NCBI GenBank assembly: GCA_963666365.2
Contig: CAXXNF010000002.1
Coordinates: 1,056,001-1,120,000, forward strand
Direction of reading: 5' to 3'
Length of the DNA: 64,000 nt
Source of the DNA: Syntrophales bacterium
Lineage (GTDB): Bacteria > Desulfobacterota > Syntrophia > Syntrophales > UBA2210
The translations under genes and the position numbers were made by a program. Under the pieces are notes generated by a model. The model made no database searches. It was not told the origin of the DNA and saw only the letters and a list, made by a program, of their open reading frames with translations. Below, piece by piece: positions 46,960-55,424 of this stretch (the first letter of the stretch is position 1; each line of letters starts with the position of its first letter).

Positions 46960-47310
46960 TTATTTTTTATCTGCGAAGAATTCACTCCCCTTCTCGACGA
47001 TTCTGTCTACTTTTTCTGTAAAGACTTTGCCTTTTTCGATCGCACCTCTGCCCTTTTCCATGATGTCGCCTGTATGAGTCCTGACGTCCTCTATGGTGGT
47101 TTGAATTTTGTCGGAAAATTCATTCGGCGCCTTGTAGTAGAGGTACCCGGCAATGCACAAAAGCACTATCCCGAGTATTAAAACCAGTTTGATGATTTTT
47201 TTCATCAGGAAGTAGAAAATTAAAAGCGCCAGAAGCGCCATCGCCATCAGAGCGACCGGGTTGGCAGACAGATACTGCAATAAATCGTCCAACGGGAATA
47301 CCTCCTGCAA
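46960..47310 (-). CDS. Small membrane protein, hypothetical
   Basis: Two hydrophobic segments followed by an amphipathic tail; start uncertain. Confidence 0.7.
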   Translation of the reverse strand: MQEVFPLDDLLQYLSANPVALMAMALLALLIFYFLMKKIIKLVLILGIVLLCIAGYLYYKAPNEFSDKIQTTIEDVRTHTGDIMEKGRGAIEKGKVFTEKVDRIVEKGSEFFADKK

Positions 47311-47315
47311 CGGCG

Positions 47316-47729
47316 TTAGAGGGTGATAACCGGTCTAAACAGAGGAATGGCGACCTCTTCGGTTCTGTCATCCCAGACCACTTCAACCGGCATGTTGCAC
47401 CGCACCTCATCGGGCCGGCATCCGATTATATTTGTGATGAGATGAGGCCCTTCATCAAGTTCCACTATCGCCGCCACATAGGGAACCTCTCCGGTGAATG
47501 CGGGATGAAAGGCCTTGTGATACACGACATAGCTGTACACTCGTCCCCTCCCTGACGCAACAGTCCATTCCGAGTTTCTTGAGCAGCACTTCGGGCAGAG
47601 AAACGAAGGCGGCATACGAAAGGCGCCACAGTTGCGGCACTGCTGGATTTTCAGCTGGTGTGTTCCACAGGCGTCCCAGAACGGCTTTGTATCGGCATTG
47701 ATGCCCGGCAAAGGTTTAATATCGCTCAT
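47316..47729 (-). CDS. Zn-ribbon/OB-fold DUF35 protein (thiolase partner)
   Basis: PFWDAC, CRNC...CPKC, SGRGRVYSY and VELDEGP motifs. Confidence 0.93.
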   Translation of the reverse strand: MSDIKPLPGINADTKPFWDACGTHQLKIQQCRNCGAFRMPPSFLCPKCCSRNSEWTVASGRGRVYSYVVYHKAFHPAFTGEVPYVAAIVELDEGPHLITNIIGCRPDEVRCNMPVEVVWDDRTEEVAIPLFRPVITL

Positions 47730-47733
47730 GATA

Positions 47734-48888
47734 TTACCACCTCCTCAGTATGTAACAGGCATGGGTTTGCAATATGCCCCCATTATCGCTGCACAGAATT
47801 ATTTCCGGTTCTCTTGTGTCGGTGGCGGGACCCAGTTGCCGACCGCCGCAACGACCCATGAGCTGCATGACTGCTTCCGTAAGCGGCGTCAGTCCCATAT
47901 GATAGGCTTCCGAAAGCTGTCCCCCTGAGGTATTGACCGGCATGGCGCCTCCCGGTTCGATTGTTCCGCCGGCAAACCATCCCTCTCCTTCGCCGGGACC
48001 GAAAAATCCATAATCCTGAAGAGTTATTTCAACCGTGTAGGTAAAACAGTCGTAAATTTCACAGGCATCTATATCGGAAAGGGCAATTCCCGCCATATGA
48101 AGGGCGTCCGCACCCGCTCTCACGGCGCCGGTGGGGCCGGCAAGATGGAGGGCCGTCTGAAGATCAGCCGACGGGTTGTGCTGCCCCATCCCCATAATCG
48201 TGACAAGATTGTGTTTGAGGTCGCGGGCGCGTTCAACCGTTGTTACTATGCAGGCCCTTCCTCCATCATTGATCAGGCAGTTATCGGGAAGGCGGAATGG
48301 TTCGACCAGCCATTTTGAATTGAGATACTCTTCCTCGGTCATCGTGCGATCATGCATTATGGCCCGTGGATTGAGGTTCGCCCACTTTCGCTGCCCTACG
48401 GCGATGTGTTTCCATGTATCGGGACCGGTATGAAATTCATGCATCGCCCTGCGTGCGGCCATTGCATATCCCCCCGTTGCACCAAAAAGACCCCATATCG
48501 CTTCGTCACCGCTCATTTCCGTGAGCATTTTTACCATGCTGTCGCCAGAATGAGCGTACGAGAGAAGCACATAGTTACAAAGACCCGATTCAAGCGCGCC
48601 AACTGCGTGCAGTAAATGACTGCGCGATCAATTCGCGTCCTGCGCCATAAATGTGGGAGATAATCCCAGCTGCTGCGCCACAAGATAGGGCGTCACATCC
48701 CTTTCACCGGTCGGTGCAATAAAATGTCTGTAGAGAATAAGCCCGTCGATGTCCCGGGGGTTTAACCCCGCATCTTCAATCGCCTGCGCGCATGCCTCCA
48801 GATGAAAACTGAGCGTTGTTCTATCCGACACGTTCCCCTGAGGGGTATATCCTACCCCGACTATGGCATATTTGTCCTTCACACTCAT
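47734..48888 (-). CDS. Thiolase-fold protein (SCP2/Ltp2-like) with in-frame TGA at codon 87 (candidate selenocysteine, otherwise pseudogene)
   Basis: The two track ORFs 48930-48628 and 48570-47734 share one frame; read-through gives 384 aa with AIVGVG, EIYDCFT and NTSGGQLSEAY motifs. Confidence 0.85.
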
Positions 48889-48945
48889 AGGGCCCTCCTT
48901 TTCGACTGCAGTATTTCCGTTTATATGCACACGACTCGAATTCCC

Positions 48946-50446: not shown

Positions 50447-52366
50447 TTAACTGGATCTCAAAAACCAGATCGTTGCCGCCGATTCGTCAAATAAGGCGGA
50501 CCCATCCTCAATTGCATTGAGTGCCTCCCAACTGCGCGCAATCATTTCAGACGTTGGATACAGGGAATCGGAAGAGATTCTCAATCCCTTCCCGACCATG
50601 ACCTCGGCCCTGTTGAAAGCGCCGGCCGAGGCATTAATAATCAGTCCCGTTTCACTGCATGCGTCCGATGCAAGGTAGAGCACCATGGCCGATACCATCC
50701 GCGGGTCCATCTTCTCCGCCTGCCCCTCCGGCATGACATCCGCGTTCATGCGCGTCGCCGCGAGGGGCGCAATGGTATTCACGGTGATGCCATAGGGTGT
50801 TGCCTCGCGGGAAAGCGCCCTCATAAGACCAATGAGTCCCATTTTTGCGGCGCCGTAGTTTGACTGCCCGAAATTACCGTAAAGACCTCCCACTGAAGTG
50901 GTCATAATGATTCTTCCGTATCCCTGAGCTGCCATATGCTCAAAGGCCGCCTGCGTGACATGAAAGGCGCCGTTCAGGTGCACATCGAATACGGCACGCC
51001 AGTTTTCGATGGTCATCTTTACGAAACTCTTGTCCCGTATGATTCCTGCGTTATTTATCAGAATATCGACTTTGCCGAAGGCATCGAGCGCCCTTTTTAC
51101 AATCGCCCGTCCTCCCGCAACCGTCGCGACGGAATCGCACTGGGCTACAGCCGTTCCTCCGAAGGCTCGTATTTCCTGCACCACTCGCTCCGCCGCGGTT
51201 CCAGTGCCTTCTCCCGCCCCGTCTCTGGGCACCCCGTAATCATTTACCACGACAAAGGCGCCTCGCCGGGCGAGTTCCAGGGCATACACCCTGCCCAGCC
51301 CTTCTCCGGCGCCGGTGACAATTGCCACCCGGCCGTCGAAGCGGATGTCATCTTTCGGTAAGCGTTGTGTGGGTAAATTCCCGGAGGCCTCAATCGATGG
51401 TGTGGAAAAATCCACTATCTTTTCGAAAAGTTCACCGATCATGCCGTCCTGATCCCAGTAAGGGACCGCATTATCAAGTCGTGAAATTTCCGCCCATGCC
51501 TGTGCAACATCTTCCACGTCTACAGAAGCGCCATTAATTTCCGGGACATGACTTTTCCCTGTCAAAACGGCGGCCCTGGCATAGGTTCCCGCCCCGGCTG
51601 CATATATCTTTCCCGATTCGGCGCATTCTTGTGATGAAAGACAGACCGCCATGGGAGAAACATAGGCCGGATCAATATCCCGTCGGTCGTTCCCGGCATG
51701 CGGCACACCCATTGTGGAAGGTAAGATCAGCGGAATGAGAACATTGACCCCGATATTGTATTTTCTTCCCTCAAGCTTGATCACGTTCATAAGACCGACA
51801 CAGGCCATGGACGCGGCACTTCGCATCGCACCCCCCGATGACCCAAACAGTATGGTCTCGGGTAAAACAAACACTATTCTTCCAAAATTATTTTCACGCA
51901 TCGCTCTGAATGCGGGTCGGCACAGAAAAAATGCTTCTTCAATAGGTTCGATCGTGCCGGTATGCCAGGACACTGGCGTAATATCGGTGAAGGAACCGCC
52001 GGATCGGGACACATCGGGCATATGGATCAGAATTTGAAGGGTTCCGGAATGTGTGAGCGCACCGGCGATCAGGGCCTCCCCCCCCTCATTCGACGCCTCG
52101 TACAGGACGGAATCGTATGTGCCATGCATTCCTTCAGCCCTGCTGATCATCTCGCTGTCCCGGCGTTCTGATCCTTTCTTCATGCCACGCACCACATAAC
52201 AGCCACGACTTTCCAGTTCCATCGCGATCCTATGGCCCAGATCCCCGCCTCCCGTGATCAGGGCCGTCTGCCCCTCAAAACGGATTGAATGGTTCATGTC
52301 GTTATTCGAAACCATTGCCTGACCTTTCTCAGTATTTATAGCTGGCAGTAAGAATAATACATTCAT
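50447..52366 (-). CDS. Tandem SDR oxidoreductase (MFE-2 hydroxyacyl-CoA dehydrogenase-like)
   Basis: Second domain has TGAGEGLG, NNAGI and YGAAK; first domain is a degenerate copy. Confidence 0.88.
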   Translation of the reverse strand: MNVLFLLPAINTEKGQAMVSNNDMNHSIRFEGQTALITGGGDLGHRIAMELESRGCYVVRGMKKGSERRDSEMISRAEGMHGTYDSVLYEASNEGGEALIAGALTHSGTLQILIHMPDVSRSGGSFTDITPVSWHTGTIEPIEEAFFLCRPAFRAMRENNFGRIVFVLPETILFGSSGGAMRSAASMACVGLMNVIKLEGRKYNIGVNVLIPLILPSTMGVPHAGNDRRDIDPAYVSPMAVCLSSQECAESGKIYAAGAGTYARAAVLTGKSHVPEINGASVDVEDVAQAWAEISRLDNAVPYWDQDGMIGELFEKIVDFSTPSIEASGNLPTQRLPKDDIRFDGRVAIVTGAGEGLGRVYALELARRGAFVVVNDYGVPRDGAGEGTGTAAERVVQEIRAFGGTAVAQCDSVATVAGGRAIVKRALDAFGKVDILINNAGIIRDKSFVKMTIENWRAVFDVHLNGAFHVTQAAFEHMAAQGYGRIIMTTSVGGLYGNFGQSNYGAAKMGLIGLMRALSREATPYGITVNTIAPLAATRMNADVMPEGQAEKMDPRMVSAMVLYLASDACSETGLIINASAGAFNRAEVMVGKGLRISSDSLYPTSEMIARSWEALNAIEDGSALFDESAATIWFLRSS

Positions 52367-52527
52367 CCTATAAAACCAAGCGGTATATTCATCACGCTGA
52401 TTTAACAGACCCTGAACTCACACCACGTGATCATCGTGAACTCTTGAAGCGAGAGAGAGCAAATTCATCTTTCAATAGCGCTTTCAATATGGCAGTATCG
52501 TGCACAAGGACATATGGGTGCTGCGCG

Positions 52528-54279
52528 ATGTACGGCTGGTGCGGAAAAATTCTGAGGATCGACCTGACAACCAGGCATTTCTGCGCCGAAGAACCGGACG
52601 GCAAACTTCTGCATACCTGCATCGGCGGCAGAGGACTCGCGGGCCACTATCTTTCTCAGGAGACTGCCGGAAACTGGCACGATCCCTCCATGCCCCTCCT
52701 CTTATTTGCCGGACCGCTCGTCGATACGGCTTCTCCCACGTCGGGACGAATGACGATCATGGCGCGCTCGCCATTAACGGGGACAGTCGGAGACGCATCG
52801 GTAGGGGGAAATCTTGGAACGTTTATCAAAAAGGCGGGGTGGGACGGCGTAATCATCACAGGGAGGAGCGACTCTCTCTGTGGTATAGAAATCGATGATG
52901 GCACTGTATCCATTGTGGATGCCTCACATCTTGCCGGAATGAAAATCGGCGCCCTGTCACAACATCTGAAGGGAAAAGGAGCCGTTGCCGCCATCGGTCC
53001 CGCGGCGGAGAAGGGCGTACTTTTTTCGAGTGTAATTATAGACGGCCACTTTGCGGCGGGACGAAACGGCATCGGGTGCGTCTGTGCGTCAAAAAACATC
53101 AAGTACCTGCGCATAAGAGGTTCCGGCAGGACAGAGGTCTTTGATCAGAAAGAACTCATAAAGGCTCGCGAAGATATCACCCGCCTGATTGCCGCCTCCC
53201 CTGCCCTTCTCGGCGAACTTGGTCTTGGCCGTTACGGAACACCGGCGCTGTACGATTTGATGCACACACGGCGCATGATGCCCACCGATAATTTCAGAAA
53301 GACCCGTTTCGATCACGCGTCCTCCATGAATGCCTGTGCGCTGCACAGAACCTACCGCCCCCGCAGGGCTGGATGCCGTGGCTGTCACATCAATTGCAAG
53401 AAAATATCGCCTGAAGGAACGGTGATTCCGGAATTTGAATCACTTTCTCATTTCAGCGCCCTTCTGAGCAATCGGGATCTGTCGTCCGTCGTTGAAGCGA
53501 ACAGGATCTGCAATGAGCTCGGCATGGACACGATTTCGGCTGCCTCGACGCTTGCCTGCTACGCCGAAATTGAAGAAAGAGCCCTTGCGCCCGAAGAGAT
53601 CCTTGGTCTTTTACAGGATATCGGCCTGGGAAGAGGCATCGGCATCGCTCTGGGACAGGGATCGGCCCGCTATGCGGAATCGCAGGGCCGTCCGGAATGC
53701 TCCATGTCGGTAAAAGGACAGGAATTACCCGCCTACGATCCGAGGGGCGCCTACGGAATGGCACTTGCCTATGCCACGTCGACGCGTGGCGGATGTCACC
53801 TGCGCGCCTACCCGATCTCGCATGAGATTCTCAGAAAACCGGTGGCAACCGACCGATTCACCTTCAGCGGCAAGGCCCGCGTCATCAAAATCGCCGAGGA
53901 TCTCAACGCGGCCGTCGATTCTCTTACGGCCTGCAAATTCGTATTTTTTGCGGCTTCGCTGGAAGAATATGCACGCGTCTTTTCCGCCGTGACCGGGGTT
54001 TCTACGTCCGCCCAGGATCTTCTTAAGGCAGGAGAGCGGATATGCTACCGGGAACGAATCATGAATGCCGCACAGGGTTTTTCGGCAGATGACGACGATT
54101 TGCCCGACCGGTTCTTCACTAAAGAAGGATCGAGCGGAAACAATATTTCAATACCGCCCCTTGACCGAAAGGATTTTCTGGAAGCACGATCGAATTATTA
54201 TAAGATTCGAGGGCTCAGTAACAGGGGGATGCCTACGGAAGAAAAGGCAAAGGAGCTGGGGCTTTCGTGGAATCAATGA
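52528..54279 (+). CDS. Aldehyde:ferredoxin oxidoreductase family (W/Mo-pterin)
   Basis: SPLTG, AAGRNG, CRGCHINC, LGMDTIS, PAYDPRG and RGGCH motifs. Confidence 0.92.
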   Translation: MYGWCGKILRIDLTTRHFCAEEPDGKLLHTCIGGRGLAGHYLSQETAGNWHDPSMPLLLFAGPLVDTASPTSGRMTIMARSPLTGTVGDASVGGNLGTFIKKAGWDGVIITGRSDSLCGIEIDDGTVSIVDASHLAGMKIGALSQHLKGKGAVAAIGPAAEKGVLFSSVIIDGHFAAGRNGIGCVCASKNIKYLRIRGSGRTEVFDQKELIKAREDITRLIAASPALLGELGLGRYGTPALYDLMHTRRMMPTDNFRKTRFDHASSMNACALHRTYRPRRAGCRGCHINCKKISPEGTVIPEFESLSHFSALLSNRDLSSVVEANRICNELGMDTISAASTLACYAEIEERALAPEEILGLLQDIGLGRGIGIALGQGSARYAESQGRPECSMSVKGQELPAYDPRGAYGMALAYATSTRGGCHLRAYPISHEILRKPVATDRFTFSGKARVIKIAEDLNAAVDSLTACKFVFFAASLEEYARVFSAVTGVSTSAQDLLKAGERICYRERIMNAAQGFSADDDDLPDRFFTKEGSSGNNISIPPLDRKDFLEARSNYYKIRGLSNRGMPTEEKAKELGLSWNQ

Positions 54280-55424
54280 TGTACAAATATGAGCAAAAGC
54301 TGAGTGAGGCGGGCCTTACCGAAGAGGGAGCGCCCCTCATGGGGGTGCTCGATGCGGAACTTCTGTGGAGCAGGCGCAATCGACACACCCCGTTTCTTGA
54401 AAGACTCTTTAAGGAACTGAATATCAGTTCTCTTCTGTTTTCCGAACCCAGAGAGCCCTATCGCACGATTATCGATCACCTCTGCCGCACTTCGGACGGA
54501 ACGATCTTTCCGGAAGACTGTGAAACGCGCACATTTCTACATGATCTCCCCGTGGCCGGGACACTCAGTGCTGCAGAGATCGCGGCCTTTCTCAAACACC
54601 GCAAGTGCGTTCTGATTCCGGGACATGGCATTATCACCTTTGGGACGGTCAGTCCCGAACAGGCGTTTATCACGTACAGTTCCGTCTGTTTTGCCGTCTT
54701 TGTAAAATTTTTTTCGGACATGCTCTACAGAAAAAAGCGGGGCACGATTTCCCTTGAAGAATTAAAGATTTTCAGACGGGTGCGCACTATGCTCGATGCA
54801 CCTGTTTCCAATGCTCCCCTGCTCGCCCAGTCCCCTTTCTCCGACGAAAAAGAAGTGCTGCGTGTTATTGAGGAAGCAGGGAAAGAAGTGGTGCGGTACG
54901 GTCTCGTGGATTCTTACTTCGGCAATATCTCTTACTGTTTCCAGGGTACGCTCTATATAAGTCAGACCAGCAGTTCCCTCGACGACCTTGCCGGGTGCAT
55001 CGATCCCTGTCCTCTCGACGGATCATCCTGTGCAGGCATCACTGCCTCGAGCGAACTCCCGACCCACCTGGAAATCGTTAATAATTCCAACTCAAGGGCA
55101 ATCCTTCACGGACACCCGAAATTTTCTGTGATTATCTCGATGGACTGCGACCGTGACGACTGCCTGGCTCGAGGTCTCTGCCATCGGCGCTGCCCCGAAA
55201 GACGGCTTCTCGACGACATTCCTATTGTACCGGGCGAGGTGGGTACGGGTCCCTTCGGCCTCTGCACCACCGTCCCCGATGCCGTCCTTGAGGCCTGCGG
55301 CGCCATCGTCTATGGCCACGGGGTTTTCACCACAAGCAAATCCGACTTCAACGAGGCCTTTTCCCGTCTGCTGAATATAGAAAACAGGTCCCGAGAAGAA
55401 TACTTTCGGCGATTCGACGAATAA
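54267..55424 (+). CDS. Class II aldolase/adducin-domain protein with a Cys-rich insert
   Basis: GNIS, ASSELPTH, LHGHP and YGHGV motifs; overlaps the AOR stop. Confidence 0.8.
   Translation: MESMMYKYEQKLSEAGLTEEGAPLMGVLDAELLWSRRNRHTPFLERLFKELNISSLLFSEPREPYRTIIDHLCRTSDGTIFPEDCETRTFLHDLPVAGTLSAAEIAAFLKHRKCVLIPGHGIITFGTVSPEQAFITYSSVCFAVFVKFFSDMLYRKKRGTISLEELKIFRRVRTMLDAPVSNAPLLAQSPFSDEKEVLRVIEEAGKEVVRYGLVDSYFGNISYCFQGTLYISQTSSSLDDLAGCIDPCPLDGSSCAGITASSELPTHLEIVNNSNSRAILHGHPKFSVIISMDCDRDDCLARGLCHRRCPERRLLDDIPIVPGEVGTGPFGLCTTVPDAVLEACGAIVYGHGVFTTSKSDFNEAFSRLLNIENRSREEYFRRFDE

Follow-up and report, generated by a model that had tools for sequence, protein, structure and literature searches.

An in-frame UGA codon in a thiolase-fold gene of a Syntrophales bacterium, probably read as selenocysteine at the position of the thiolase nucleophile

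The DNA analyzed in the current work (hereafter "the window") is a stretch of 64,000 nucleotides (nt) from a Syntrophales bacterium, representing positions 1,056,001 to 1,120,000 of contig CAXXNF010000002.1 in GenBank assembly GCA_963666365.2. Its minus strand carries a gene for a thiolase-fold protein in which a single TGA codon lies in frame, followed directly by the gene for a DUF35 protein. The features of this locus on which the analysis is based are the following (U denotes selenocysteine, Sec):

47734..48888, minus strand: thiolase-fold gene with predicted Sec at codon 87; 384 codons plus TAA, translated with TGA as U.
48628..48630, minus strand: UGA codon 87, predicted to be read as Sec; the column is TGA, TGT or TGC in 80 loci and is aligned to the thiolase Cys.
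48894..48900, minus strand: Shine-Dalgarno-like AAGGAGG, 5 nt upstream of the ATG at 48888, read off the sequence.
48594..48610, minus strand: candidate selenocysteine insertion sequence (SECIS) hairpin, from the RNAalifold consensus, its association with TGA and synonymous constraint.
48043..48054, minus strand: YDCF motif, codons 279-282; counterpart of HDCF in SCP2, YDHF in TcLtp2 and YDCY in CtSal, as given in PMC12329534.
47902..47910, minus strand: EAY motif, codons 327-329, located by alignments to 7yvy and 6ok1.
47316..47729, minus strand: DUF35 partner gene, 137 amino acids; Pfam OB_ChsH2_C (1e-23) and zf-ChsH2 (4.7e-08).

The frame running from the ATG at 48888 to the TAA at 47736-47734 is open over 384 residues except for the TGA at 48630-48628 (context FMAQDAN-U-SRSHLLHA), and contains neither a further stop codon nor a frameshift. 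A preliminary description of the window, made from its sequence without database searches, had reported one in-frame TGA within an otherwise intact 384-codon gene, and translation of the minus strand bears this out. Calling of open reading frames (ORFs) with genetic code table 11 breaks the gene into two parts (48628-48930 and 47734-48570). The coding sequence is conserved both before and after codon 87 in 81 genes, being those of the window and of the 80 loci introduced below. The DUF35 gene, which starts 4 nt past the thiolase stop codon, is intact as had also been described, and its product combines an OB fold with a zinc ribbon of the form C-x2-C-x10-C-x2-C, which is the canonical DUF35 zinc finger according to PMC12329534.

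The identity of codon 87 in homologues was determined by a scan with one genome per species, which recovered 147 related stretches, the best 80 of which were kept as loci; codon 87 of these 80 is TGA (55 loci), TGT (13) or TGC (12), and no other codon occurs. A six-frame search of 61 genomes (the organism's own and 60 relatives, a set overlapping in genomes with that of the 80 loci) located the gene in 18 of them at E <= 1e-40, and at the 18 places with at least 69% identity the codon is TGA in 15 and specifies Cys in three; three paralogues (33-40% identity) have neither TGA nor Cys in this column. The preliminary description had asked whether homologues carry TGA or Cys here, and the database proteins give a matching answer: among the best 120 of 1501 proteins (E <= 1e-50), annotated as "thiolase family protein" or "acetyl-CoA acetyltransferase", 119 have Cys in column 87, the exception being P0116, a fragment of 267 amino acids that is 94% identical and starts past the TGA. 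The full-length Cys forms in the database are single proteins of 382-404 amino acids. Column 87 therefore holds only Sec or Cys, both in all 81 genes and in the 119 full-length sequences among the best 120 proteins.

Since 55 of 80 other loci share the TGA at codon 87, its presence lies far beyond chance. The assemblies that carry TGA diverge by 17-35% in protein sequence, and a sequencing error cannot account for a codon that recurs in 55 independent assemblies, while the strict alternation of Sec and Cys across orthologues of 65-83% identity rules out a pseudogene or sequencing error. At a greater distance, among the nearest 150 representatives of clusters formed at 50% identity, an N/F-C-x-R motif is found in only a few top clusters, and column 87 of most of the others is G, A, S or T. 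The representative of a sister cluster, P0124 (390 amino acids), has YDCY instead of YDCF and a loop reading ATAGC-MVFHA; it may perhaps be an intermediate between aldolase-like and nucleophile-bearing forms.

The region downstream of the UGA was analyzed in an alignment of 63 nt from the TGA onward, comprising all 56 TGA-bearing genes (the 55 loci and the window). RNAalifold returned one hairpin, with columns 21-26 paired with columns 32-37, which in the window consists of the 5' arm GCACGC (48610-48605), the loop AGUUG (48604-48600) and the 3' arm GCGCGC (48599-48594). Measured from the UGA, the distance is 17 nt to the start of the stem and 25-26 nt to the loop G-U, and the consensus GCACGC-NGUNN-GCGYGC is near-invariant in all 56 genes. 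Over these sequences 92.0% of the hairpin cells are paired, as against 16-63% after a shift of the partners by 1-3 columns; at the third stem position 30 sequences have A-U and 26 have A.C. Compensatory changes are absent because the stem hardly varies, and covariation being uninformative for this reason, the association of the hairpin with TGA and the conservation of synonymous sites were used instead. When a hairpin was required to form at least five of its six stem pairs and to have G-U as the second and third loop nucleotides, it was present in all 55 TGA loci and in the window, as opposed to four of the 25 Cys loci. For the 56 TGA genes, pairwise identity at third codon positions amounts to 0.89 across codons 93-98 (gene mean 0.44), which makes these codons the highest six-codon window of the entire gene, versus 0.33 in the 25 Cys genes (gene mean 0.41). 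Synonymous sites are thus frozen over the hairpin codons in the TGA group only. The four Cys loci that keep the hairpin (L049, L051, L067 and L087) all fall inside Sec clades of the tree described below, and from their sequences look like apparent recent replacements of Sec by Cys with a fossil hairpin.

The hairpin at 48610-48594 overlaps the one that had been proposed in the preliminary description, where CGCGC pairs with GCGCG and an upper stem ACUG/CAGU is formed. The latter structure is indeed present as the minimum-energy fold of the single sequence, but it is not the conserved element and was rejected as a functional one, only 70.2% of its cells being paired across the 56 TGA-bearing sequences, with 61.2% in the upper stem and pair 20-27 formed in 15 of 56. 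The check for a hairpin with covariation that had been suggested at the same time was thus answered in one of its two parts, in that a TGA-specific hairpin does follow the codon, whereas the covariation is nil. In the fdhF mRNA of E. coli the G and U of the loop contact SelB. Two Fdh-alpha-like genes of the present genome have a clear hairpin with a 5-nt loop, GGUCU, closed by C-G; the AGUUG loop of the thiolase-fold gene is also closed by C-G and has its G-U at the same loop positions. A stem-loop with G(U) in its loop, as known from selenoprotein genes, therefore lies shortly 3' of the UGA.

The genome (4.0 Mb in two contigs) encodes the complete Sec machinery whose presence had been named as a check, with selB (361.5 bits), selA (608), selD (382.8) and tRNA-Sec (76.3) all above their curated cut-offs. 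The selD gene (L010, G000:C1:483557-484486) is itself a selenoprotein gene with a single in-frame TGA (context TETVRGAG-U-ACKIGPGD), and one in-frame TGA is also present in each of four Fdh-alpha-like genes:

L138, G000:C2:981096-983102: Fdh-alpha-like, one in-frame TGA.
L139, C1:230207-232216: Fdh-alpha-like, one in-frame TGA.
L141, C2:1988696-1989448: Fdh-alpha-like, one in-frame TGA.
L142, C2:586647-587405: Fdh-alpha-like, one in-frame TGA.

The contexts of the TGA in these four genes, listed together, are CARL-U-HS, CART-U-HA, QARI-U-HS and QARV-U-HS, and the sole FlpD/MvhD match in the genome is without a stop codon and supplies no additional SECIS example. The Fdh-alpha-like genes and selD resemble the thiolase-fold gene in their in-frame UGA, in having Cys homologues, in the downstream hairpin (with G-U in a 5-nt loop closed by C-G) and in depending on selABCD; they differ in belonging to other protein families and in serving redox chemistry, as opposed to the acyl transfer or C-C cleavage presumed here.

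The read-through protein matches Pfam Thiolase_C_1 (3.4e-38), and among the best 25 of the 27 NCBIfam families matched none was above its cut-off (the top one, PRK06158, reaching 245.8 versus 421 bits). Its sequence matches in the PDB are 4u4e (2.1e-63), 6ok1 (6.1e-45), 9myr (5e-40), 7yvy (3.1e-23) and 6esq (1.1e-17), and a profile of 40 rows, made up of the window protein and every second of 78 full-length loci, matches 4u4e at 6e-79, 6ok1 at 2.2e-61 and 9myr at 7.4e-57. An AlphaFold (AF2) model obtained from this profile has a mean predicted local distance difference test (pLDDT) value of 80.7 and a predicted template modelling (pTM) score of 0.85. Foldseek places 4u4e, 6ok1, 9myr, 7yvy and 6et9 at the top for this model, and all matches listed are thiolase-fold proteins, which points to a thiolase fold for the modelled protein. 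With the single sequence as well as with the profile, U87 falls on the Cys of the EAACASG sequence in 7yvy (P. furiosus) and in 6esq (M. thermolithotrophicus), and the aligned residue, counted along the 6esq chain, is number 85. According to PMC6392133, Cys85 is the active Cys of the 6esq thiolase and is equivalent to the acetylated Cys88 of PhlC. Residue 87 thus appears by alignment to occupy the position of the thiolase nucleophilic Cys, as the interpretation of an active-site Sec in the preliminary description would have it; the register error of two residues feared there did not materialize, since HMMER sets U87 exactly on this Cys in both structures. The aligned Cys is followed by a two-residue deletion, the helix past the nucleophile being two residues shorter than in thiolases.

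The gene is found in assemblies labelled as Syntrophales (Smithella, Syntrophus, Syntrophaceae), Desulfobacterales, Desulfatiglandales, Desulfarculaceae and Dehalococcoidia; the TGA form occurs, among others, in the cultured Desulfatitalea alkaliphila M08but (locus L070). A quick maximum-likelihood tree (LG+G4, with support from the Shimodaira-Hasegawa-like approximate likelihood ratio test, SH-aLRT, only) was computed for the 81 proteins and two paralogues as outgroup, with all rows kept and with column 87 retained (a gap for the Sec forms, C for the Cys forms). Rooted on the outgroup, the tree has Cys forms of Dehalococcoidia at its deepest branches, which fits an origin of Sec from a Cys ancestor with several later losses, and a clade with 99% support comprises all 56 Sec forms together with 13 Cys forms. 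At least eight changes between Sec and Cys are needed on this tree, and branches with good support demand five of them. The history that best fits these sequences has Sec gained once and replaced by Cys again several times, its direction depending on the outgroup root. Three loci labelled as Chthoniobacter flavus (L122), Bacteriovoracaceae (L057) and Pseudomonadota (L084) nest among Syntrophus and other Desulfobacterota sequences, L122 being 0.04 substitutions per site from a metagenome-assembled genome of Syntrophus, and this nesting is more likely due to errors of binning or labelling than to gene transfer.

On comparative sequence evidence, which is the sole basis for the recoding, for the role of the hairpin and for the Sec column alike, we consider it very probable (at about 0.88) that UGA87 is decoded as selenocysteine at the position of the thiolase nucleophile, a figure that refers to the recoding and the position of Sec only, the chemistry being graded separately. 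Several observations count against this assignment. The stem in the window carries one A.C mismatch, the covariation term is 0 with 0 pairs changed on both sides, and a permissive Rfam scan of 48450-48750 gave no match. The single sequence folds with z = 0.47, and because 131 of 200 shuffles fold at least as well, the folding energy alone is no evidence. The loop G-U lies at nt 28-29 counted from the U of UGA versus 23-24 in the hairpins of the two Fdh-alpha-like genes, which is 5 nt further. As to the position of Sec, the sister cluster P0124 (55% identical) has a Cys whose register relative to column 87 is ambiguous, and in the model residue 87 belongs to a coil and precedes the helix 91-101 by four residues, in a block with a pLDDT of 73, so that the equivalence of residue 87 to the nucleophile rests on the alignment.

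If the UGA were instead a genuine terminator, an 86-residue peptide and a separate 278-residue product starting from the GTG at 48570 would be made. Table 11 gives exactly these ORFs, and gene callers yield such fragments in databases (P0116 and P0125, of 267 amino acids each), but every orthologue retains, in frame, the 86 codons before the TGA and the 20 codons between TGA and GTG, the thiolase fold would be left without its N-terminal half, the Cys forms are single proteins of full length, and the TGA-specific hairpin would lie inside the supposed gap; we regard a split gene as very improbable. Even less credence is due to a fresh nonsense mutation or an assembly or sequencing error, for which nothing speaks beyond the stop codon itself. 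The recurrence of TGA in 55 of 80 independent assemblies at the protein divergence given above, the frame free of any other stop or frameshift, and the synonymous constraint seen only downstream of TGA effectively refute it.

The remainder of the predicted active site was compared with that of thiolases and of aldolases sharing their fold. YDCF is invariant in the 40 rows of the profile and in all 120 of the best 120 of the 1501 database homologues, and so are E327 and Y329 of the EAY motif, the loop of which (residues 321-331) has a pLDDT below 50 in the model. Tyr329 is aligned both to the His of the thiolase G-H-P motif (in 7yvy) and to Tyr344 of TcLtp2, and C104, C204, C276 and C281 are invariant or nearly so in the 40 rows. 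According to PMC12329534, the Tyr of YDHF acts as base and Tyr344 as acid in TcLtp2, Tyr302 and Cys304 of YDCY are the catalytic base and acid of CtSal, which has Gly at the position of the thiolase nucleophile, and the corresponding motif of TbSLP is YDCF. These motif roles together with the alignments confirm the resemblance of YDCF and EAY to the Tyr pair of Ltp2-type enzymes that the preliminary description had seen, Y279 and Y329 both being aligned to that pair and invariant, with Cys here in place of the His of YDHF. The site would, judging from the alignments, be a hybrid of a thiolase nucleophile (Sec or Cys), an acid/base Cys and both aldolase Tyr residues. As its remainder is aldolase-like, the chemistry may be of the thiolase or of the aldolase type.

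Comparison with individual systems gives the same divided picture. The best match, 4u4e, is a putative thiolase of Sphaerobacter thermophilus whose function is unknown (profile 6e-79, Foldseek 8.6e-37, template modelling score 0.81-0.86, 35% identity); it shares the YD-x-F motif in the form YDSF, but has GGSS where N-U-S-R is found here, with neither Cys nor Sec in the nucleophile column, and Ser where Cys281 is found. The steroid side-chain retro-aldolase TcLtp2-ChsH2 (6ok1) also has the thiolase fold and works with a DUF35 partner, and it shares both Tyr residues, that of YD-x-F and that of EAY (Tyr344 there); the protein described here differs in having YDCF and not YDHF and in its Sec, a nearby Cys of TcLtp2 being in a different register, and its DUF35 partner is a free-standing protein of 137 amino acids, while that of TcLtp2 is the C-terminal domain of a MaoC hydratase encoded in a steroid operon. 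The bile-acid aldolase CtSal-Shy (9myr) likewise forms a DUF35 complex, and its Tyr302 base and Cys304 acid correspond to Y279 and C281; the differences are the Gly at its nucleophile position, where the column here is strictly Sec or Cys, and Gln352, the equivalent of which is Tyr329. The DUF35-partnered thiolases that were compared (the archaeal acetoacetyl-CoA thiolases 6esq/6et9 of M. thermolithotrophicus and 7yvy of P. furiosus, the benzoylsuccinyl-CoA thiolase BbsAB, 7pxp, and the SCP2 thiolases) agree in fold, in the DUF35 partnership, in the nucleophile column (U87 being Cys85 of 6esq) and in the acid/base Cys of H/Y-D-C-F, and differ in having His in HDCF/HDAF and in G-H-P where Tyr is found here, in a nucleophile that is Cys and never Sec, and in a helix after the nucleophile that is two residues longer.

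On the reading that we prefer, a bicistronic mRNA would specify the thiolase-fold enzyme and its DUF35 partner, and when the ribosome arrives at UGA87 the hairpin GCACGC-AGUUG-GCGCGC would recruit SelB with Sec-tRNA(Sec), so that Sec is inserted and termination avoided. The resulting product of 384 residues would carry Sec at the position of the thiolase nucleophilic Cys and, by analogy with the solved complexes 6ok1, 9myr, 6esq and 7pxp, probably works in a complex with the zinc-ribbon/OB DUF35 protein. The selenolate of Sec87 would attack a 3-oxoacyl-coenzyme A (CoA) substrate, the C-C bond would break, Cys281 of YDCF would protonate the departing acetyl-CoA enolate, and an acyl-selenoester intermediate would be formed and then be resolved by CoA, with Tyr279 and Tyr329 forming the hydrogen bonds for which classical thiolases use their two His residues. 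Sec is largely ionized at neutral pH and, as we propose, would therefore not need activating His residues. This thiolase-type reaction, with Sec87 as covalent nucleophile, an acyl-selenoester, Cys281 as acid/base and the Tyr pair in place of His, is put forward tentatively, at a little under an even chance. That a natural family from anaerobic Desulfobacterota uses Sec as a non-redox, acyl-carrying nucleophile in the C-C chemistry of CoA thioesters, with Tyr replacing both His residues, is a broader claim, which we hold possible with the odds leaning against it.

The evidence that tells against thiolase-type chemistry is in large part the evidence for its main rival, according to which the protein is a genuine selenoprotein but a retro-aldolase of the Ltp2/Sal type acting on 3-hydroxyacyl-CoA, with Tyr279 as base and Cys281 or Tyr329 as acid. 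Sec87 would then never be acylated and would provide an extra acid/base, bind the aldehyde product or tune the site. The closest characterized relatives are retro-aldolases (6ok1 at 2.2e-61 and 9myr at 7.4e-57, with thiolases at 1.4e-38 and 9.2e-35), and aldolases are found at Foldseek ranks 2-4. Neither thiolase His is present: in the place of the His of HDCF there is an invariant Tyr279, although Cys281 is present and invariant, and the His of G-H-P is replaced by Tyr329. Conversely, the catalytic sets of CtSal (Tyr and Cys of YDC) and of TcLtp2 (the second Tyr) are both present and invariant, and the majority of the 150 nearest cluster representatives show G, A, S or T at the position of U87. 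Moreover, the Cys-form orthologues carry the same Tyr residues, so the notion that Sec needs no activating His is not the whole story. What speaks against an aldolase is column 87, where all 81 genes and the 119 full-length proteins among the best 120 have nothing but Sec or Cys, whereas CtSal has Gly there and needs no nucleophile (PMC12329534); the retention of costly Sec points to a direct catalytic role, and no MaoC hydratase or steroid-type context was seen around the gene. An aldolase is in our judgement rather unlikely. To our knowledge, nearly all known selenoproteins are oxidoreductases that use Sec for redox chemistry, and Sec87 might accordingly serve not as nucleophile but as a redox or regulatory element, in a selenylsulfide switch with Cys281 or another of the conserved Cys residues, or in protection from oxidation. 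The (near-)invariance of C104, C204, C276 and C281 agrees with such a role, which we consider improbable given that column 87 is by alignment that of the thiolase nucleophile and that the neighbour survey found no redox partner genes conserved nearby.

This survey covered flanks of up to 3 kb at the best 80 loci. The sole conserved neighbour is DUF35, encoded immediately downstream at 59 of the 80 (several of the other 21 are cut short by the end of their contig), the next clusters being a crotonase-like ORF in six loci and others in at most four. Wider synteny, assessed in 15 stretches of up to 20 kb, is common to close relatives only, and neither these stretches nor Pfam annotation of 18 ORFs of the window indicated a pathway. 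MaoC hydratase or steroid genes were absent among the 18 Pfam-annotated ORFs, and none were recognized among the largest neighbour clusters, which are without Pfam annotation; the TcLtp2 arrangement, with a DUF35 domain on a MaoC hydratase in a steroid side-chain operon, is therefore not reproduced around the free-standing DUF35 gene.

In the window, the DUF35 gene is directly followed by an ORF of 116 codons (46960-47310, minus strand), which starts with TTG, is hydrophobic in its N-terminal half and matches no Pfam family; it may represent a third member of the unit, or not be a gene. At 1.5-3.5 kb upstream of the thiolase-fold gene, genes for an aldehyde:ferredoxin oxidoreductase and a class II aldolase-like protein are arranged divergently from one for a 639-amino-acid short-chain dehydrogenase protein (52444-55424, plus strand, and 50447-52366, minus strand). 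An aldehyde-oxidizing enzyme near a possible aldolase is suggestive; aldehyde:ferredoxin oxidoreductase is not among the recurring neighbour clusters of the wider stretches. In a few relatives the gene pair is located just downstream of a gene for a 356-amino-acid membrane protein with the sequence NVWCAAGKGTF (L072:1390-2451, L051:2572-2904, and cluster c6 in L124, L125, L126 and L137), and three loci also have a small ferredoxin with two [4Fe-4S] clusters ending in CC. Membrane protein and ferredoxin may correspond to the mercury-methylation pair hgcA/hgcB; no such pair is present in the window.

The gene appears to be a genuine selenoprotein gene of a family that has not been described in print. 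Thiolases are absent among the selenoprotein families in the main texts of the selenoproteome studies PMC13188914, PMC12013277, PMC13326102, PMC9312934 and PMC1976440, as well as in the supplements of PMC12013277 and in the supplementary file of PMC13326102, which is perhaps incomplete; the supplements of PMC13188914 might list more families. Of the five selenoprotein genes of Desulfococcus multivorans, none is a thiolase according to PMC5109826. A full-text literature search produced no relevant paper on a Sec thiolase, and no function for a Sec thiolase-like family in Syntrophus or Desulfobacter. Clostridium kluyveri is said to have a selenium-containing thiolase, in which the selenium is present as selenomethionine, unrelated to UGA recoding.

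In protein databases the Sec forms are represented by fragments of approximately 267 amino acids (P0116, P0125), and only the Cys forms are of full length. Since gene callers cut the gene at the TGA, metabolic reconstructions of Syntrophales, Desulfobacterales and related anaerobes mis-score it as broken. The hybrid active site raises the question of how thiolases became aldolases. If the preferred reading is true, Sec at the acyl-accepting position extends biological selenium chemistry to acyl transfer and C-C cleavage, and the natural pair of Sec and Cys forms would allow measurement of what selenium adds to this chemistry.

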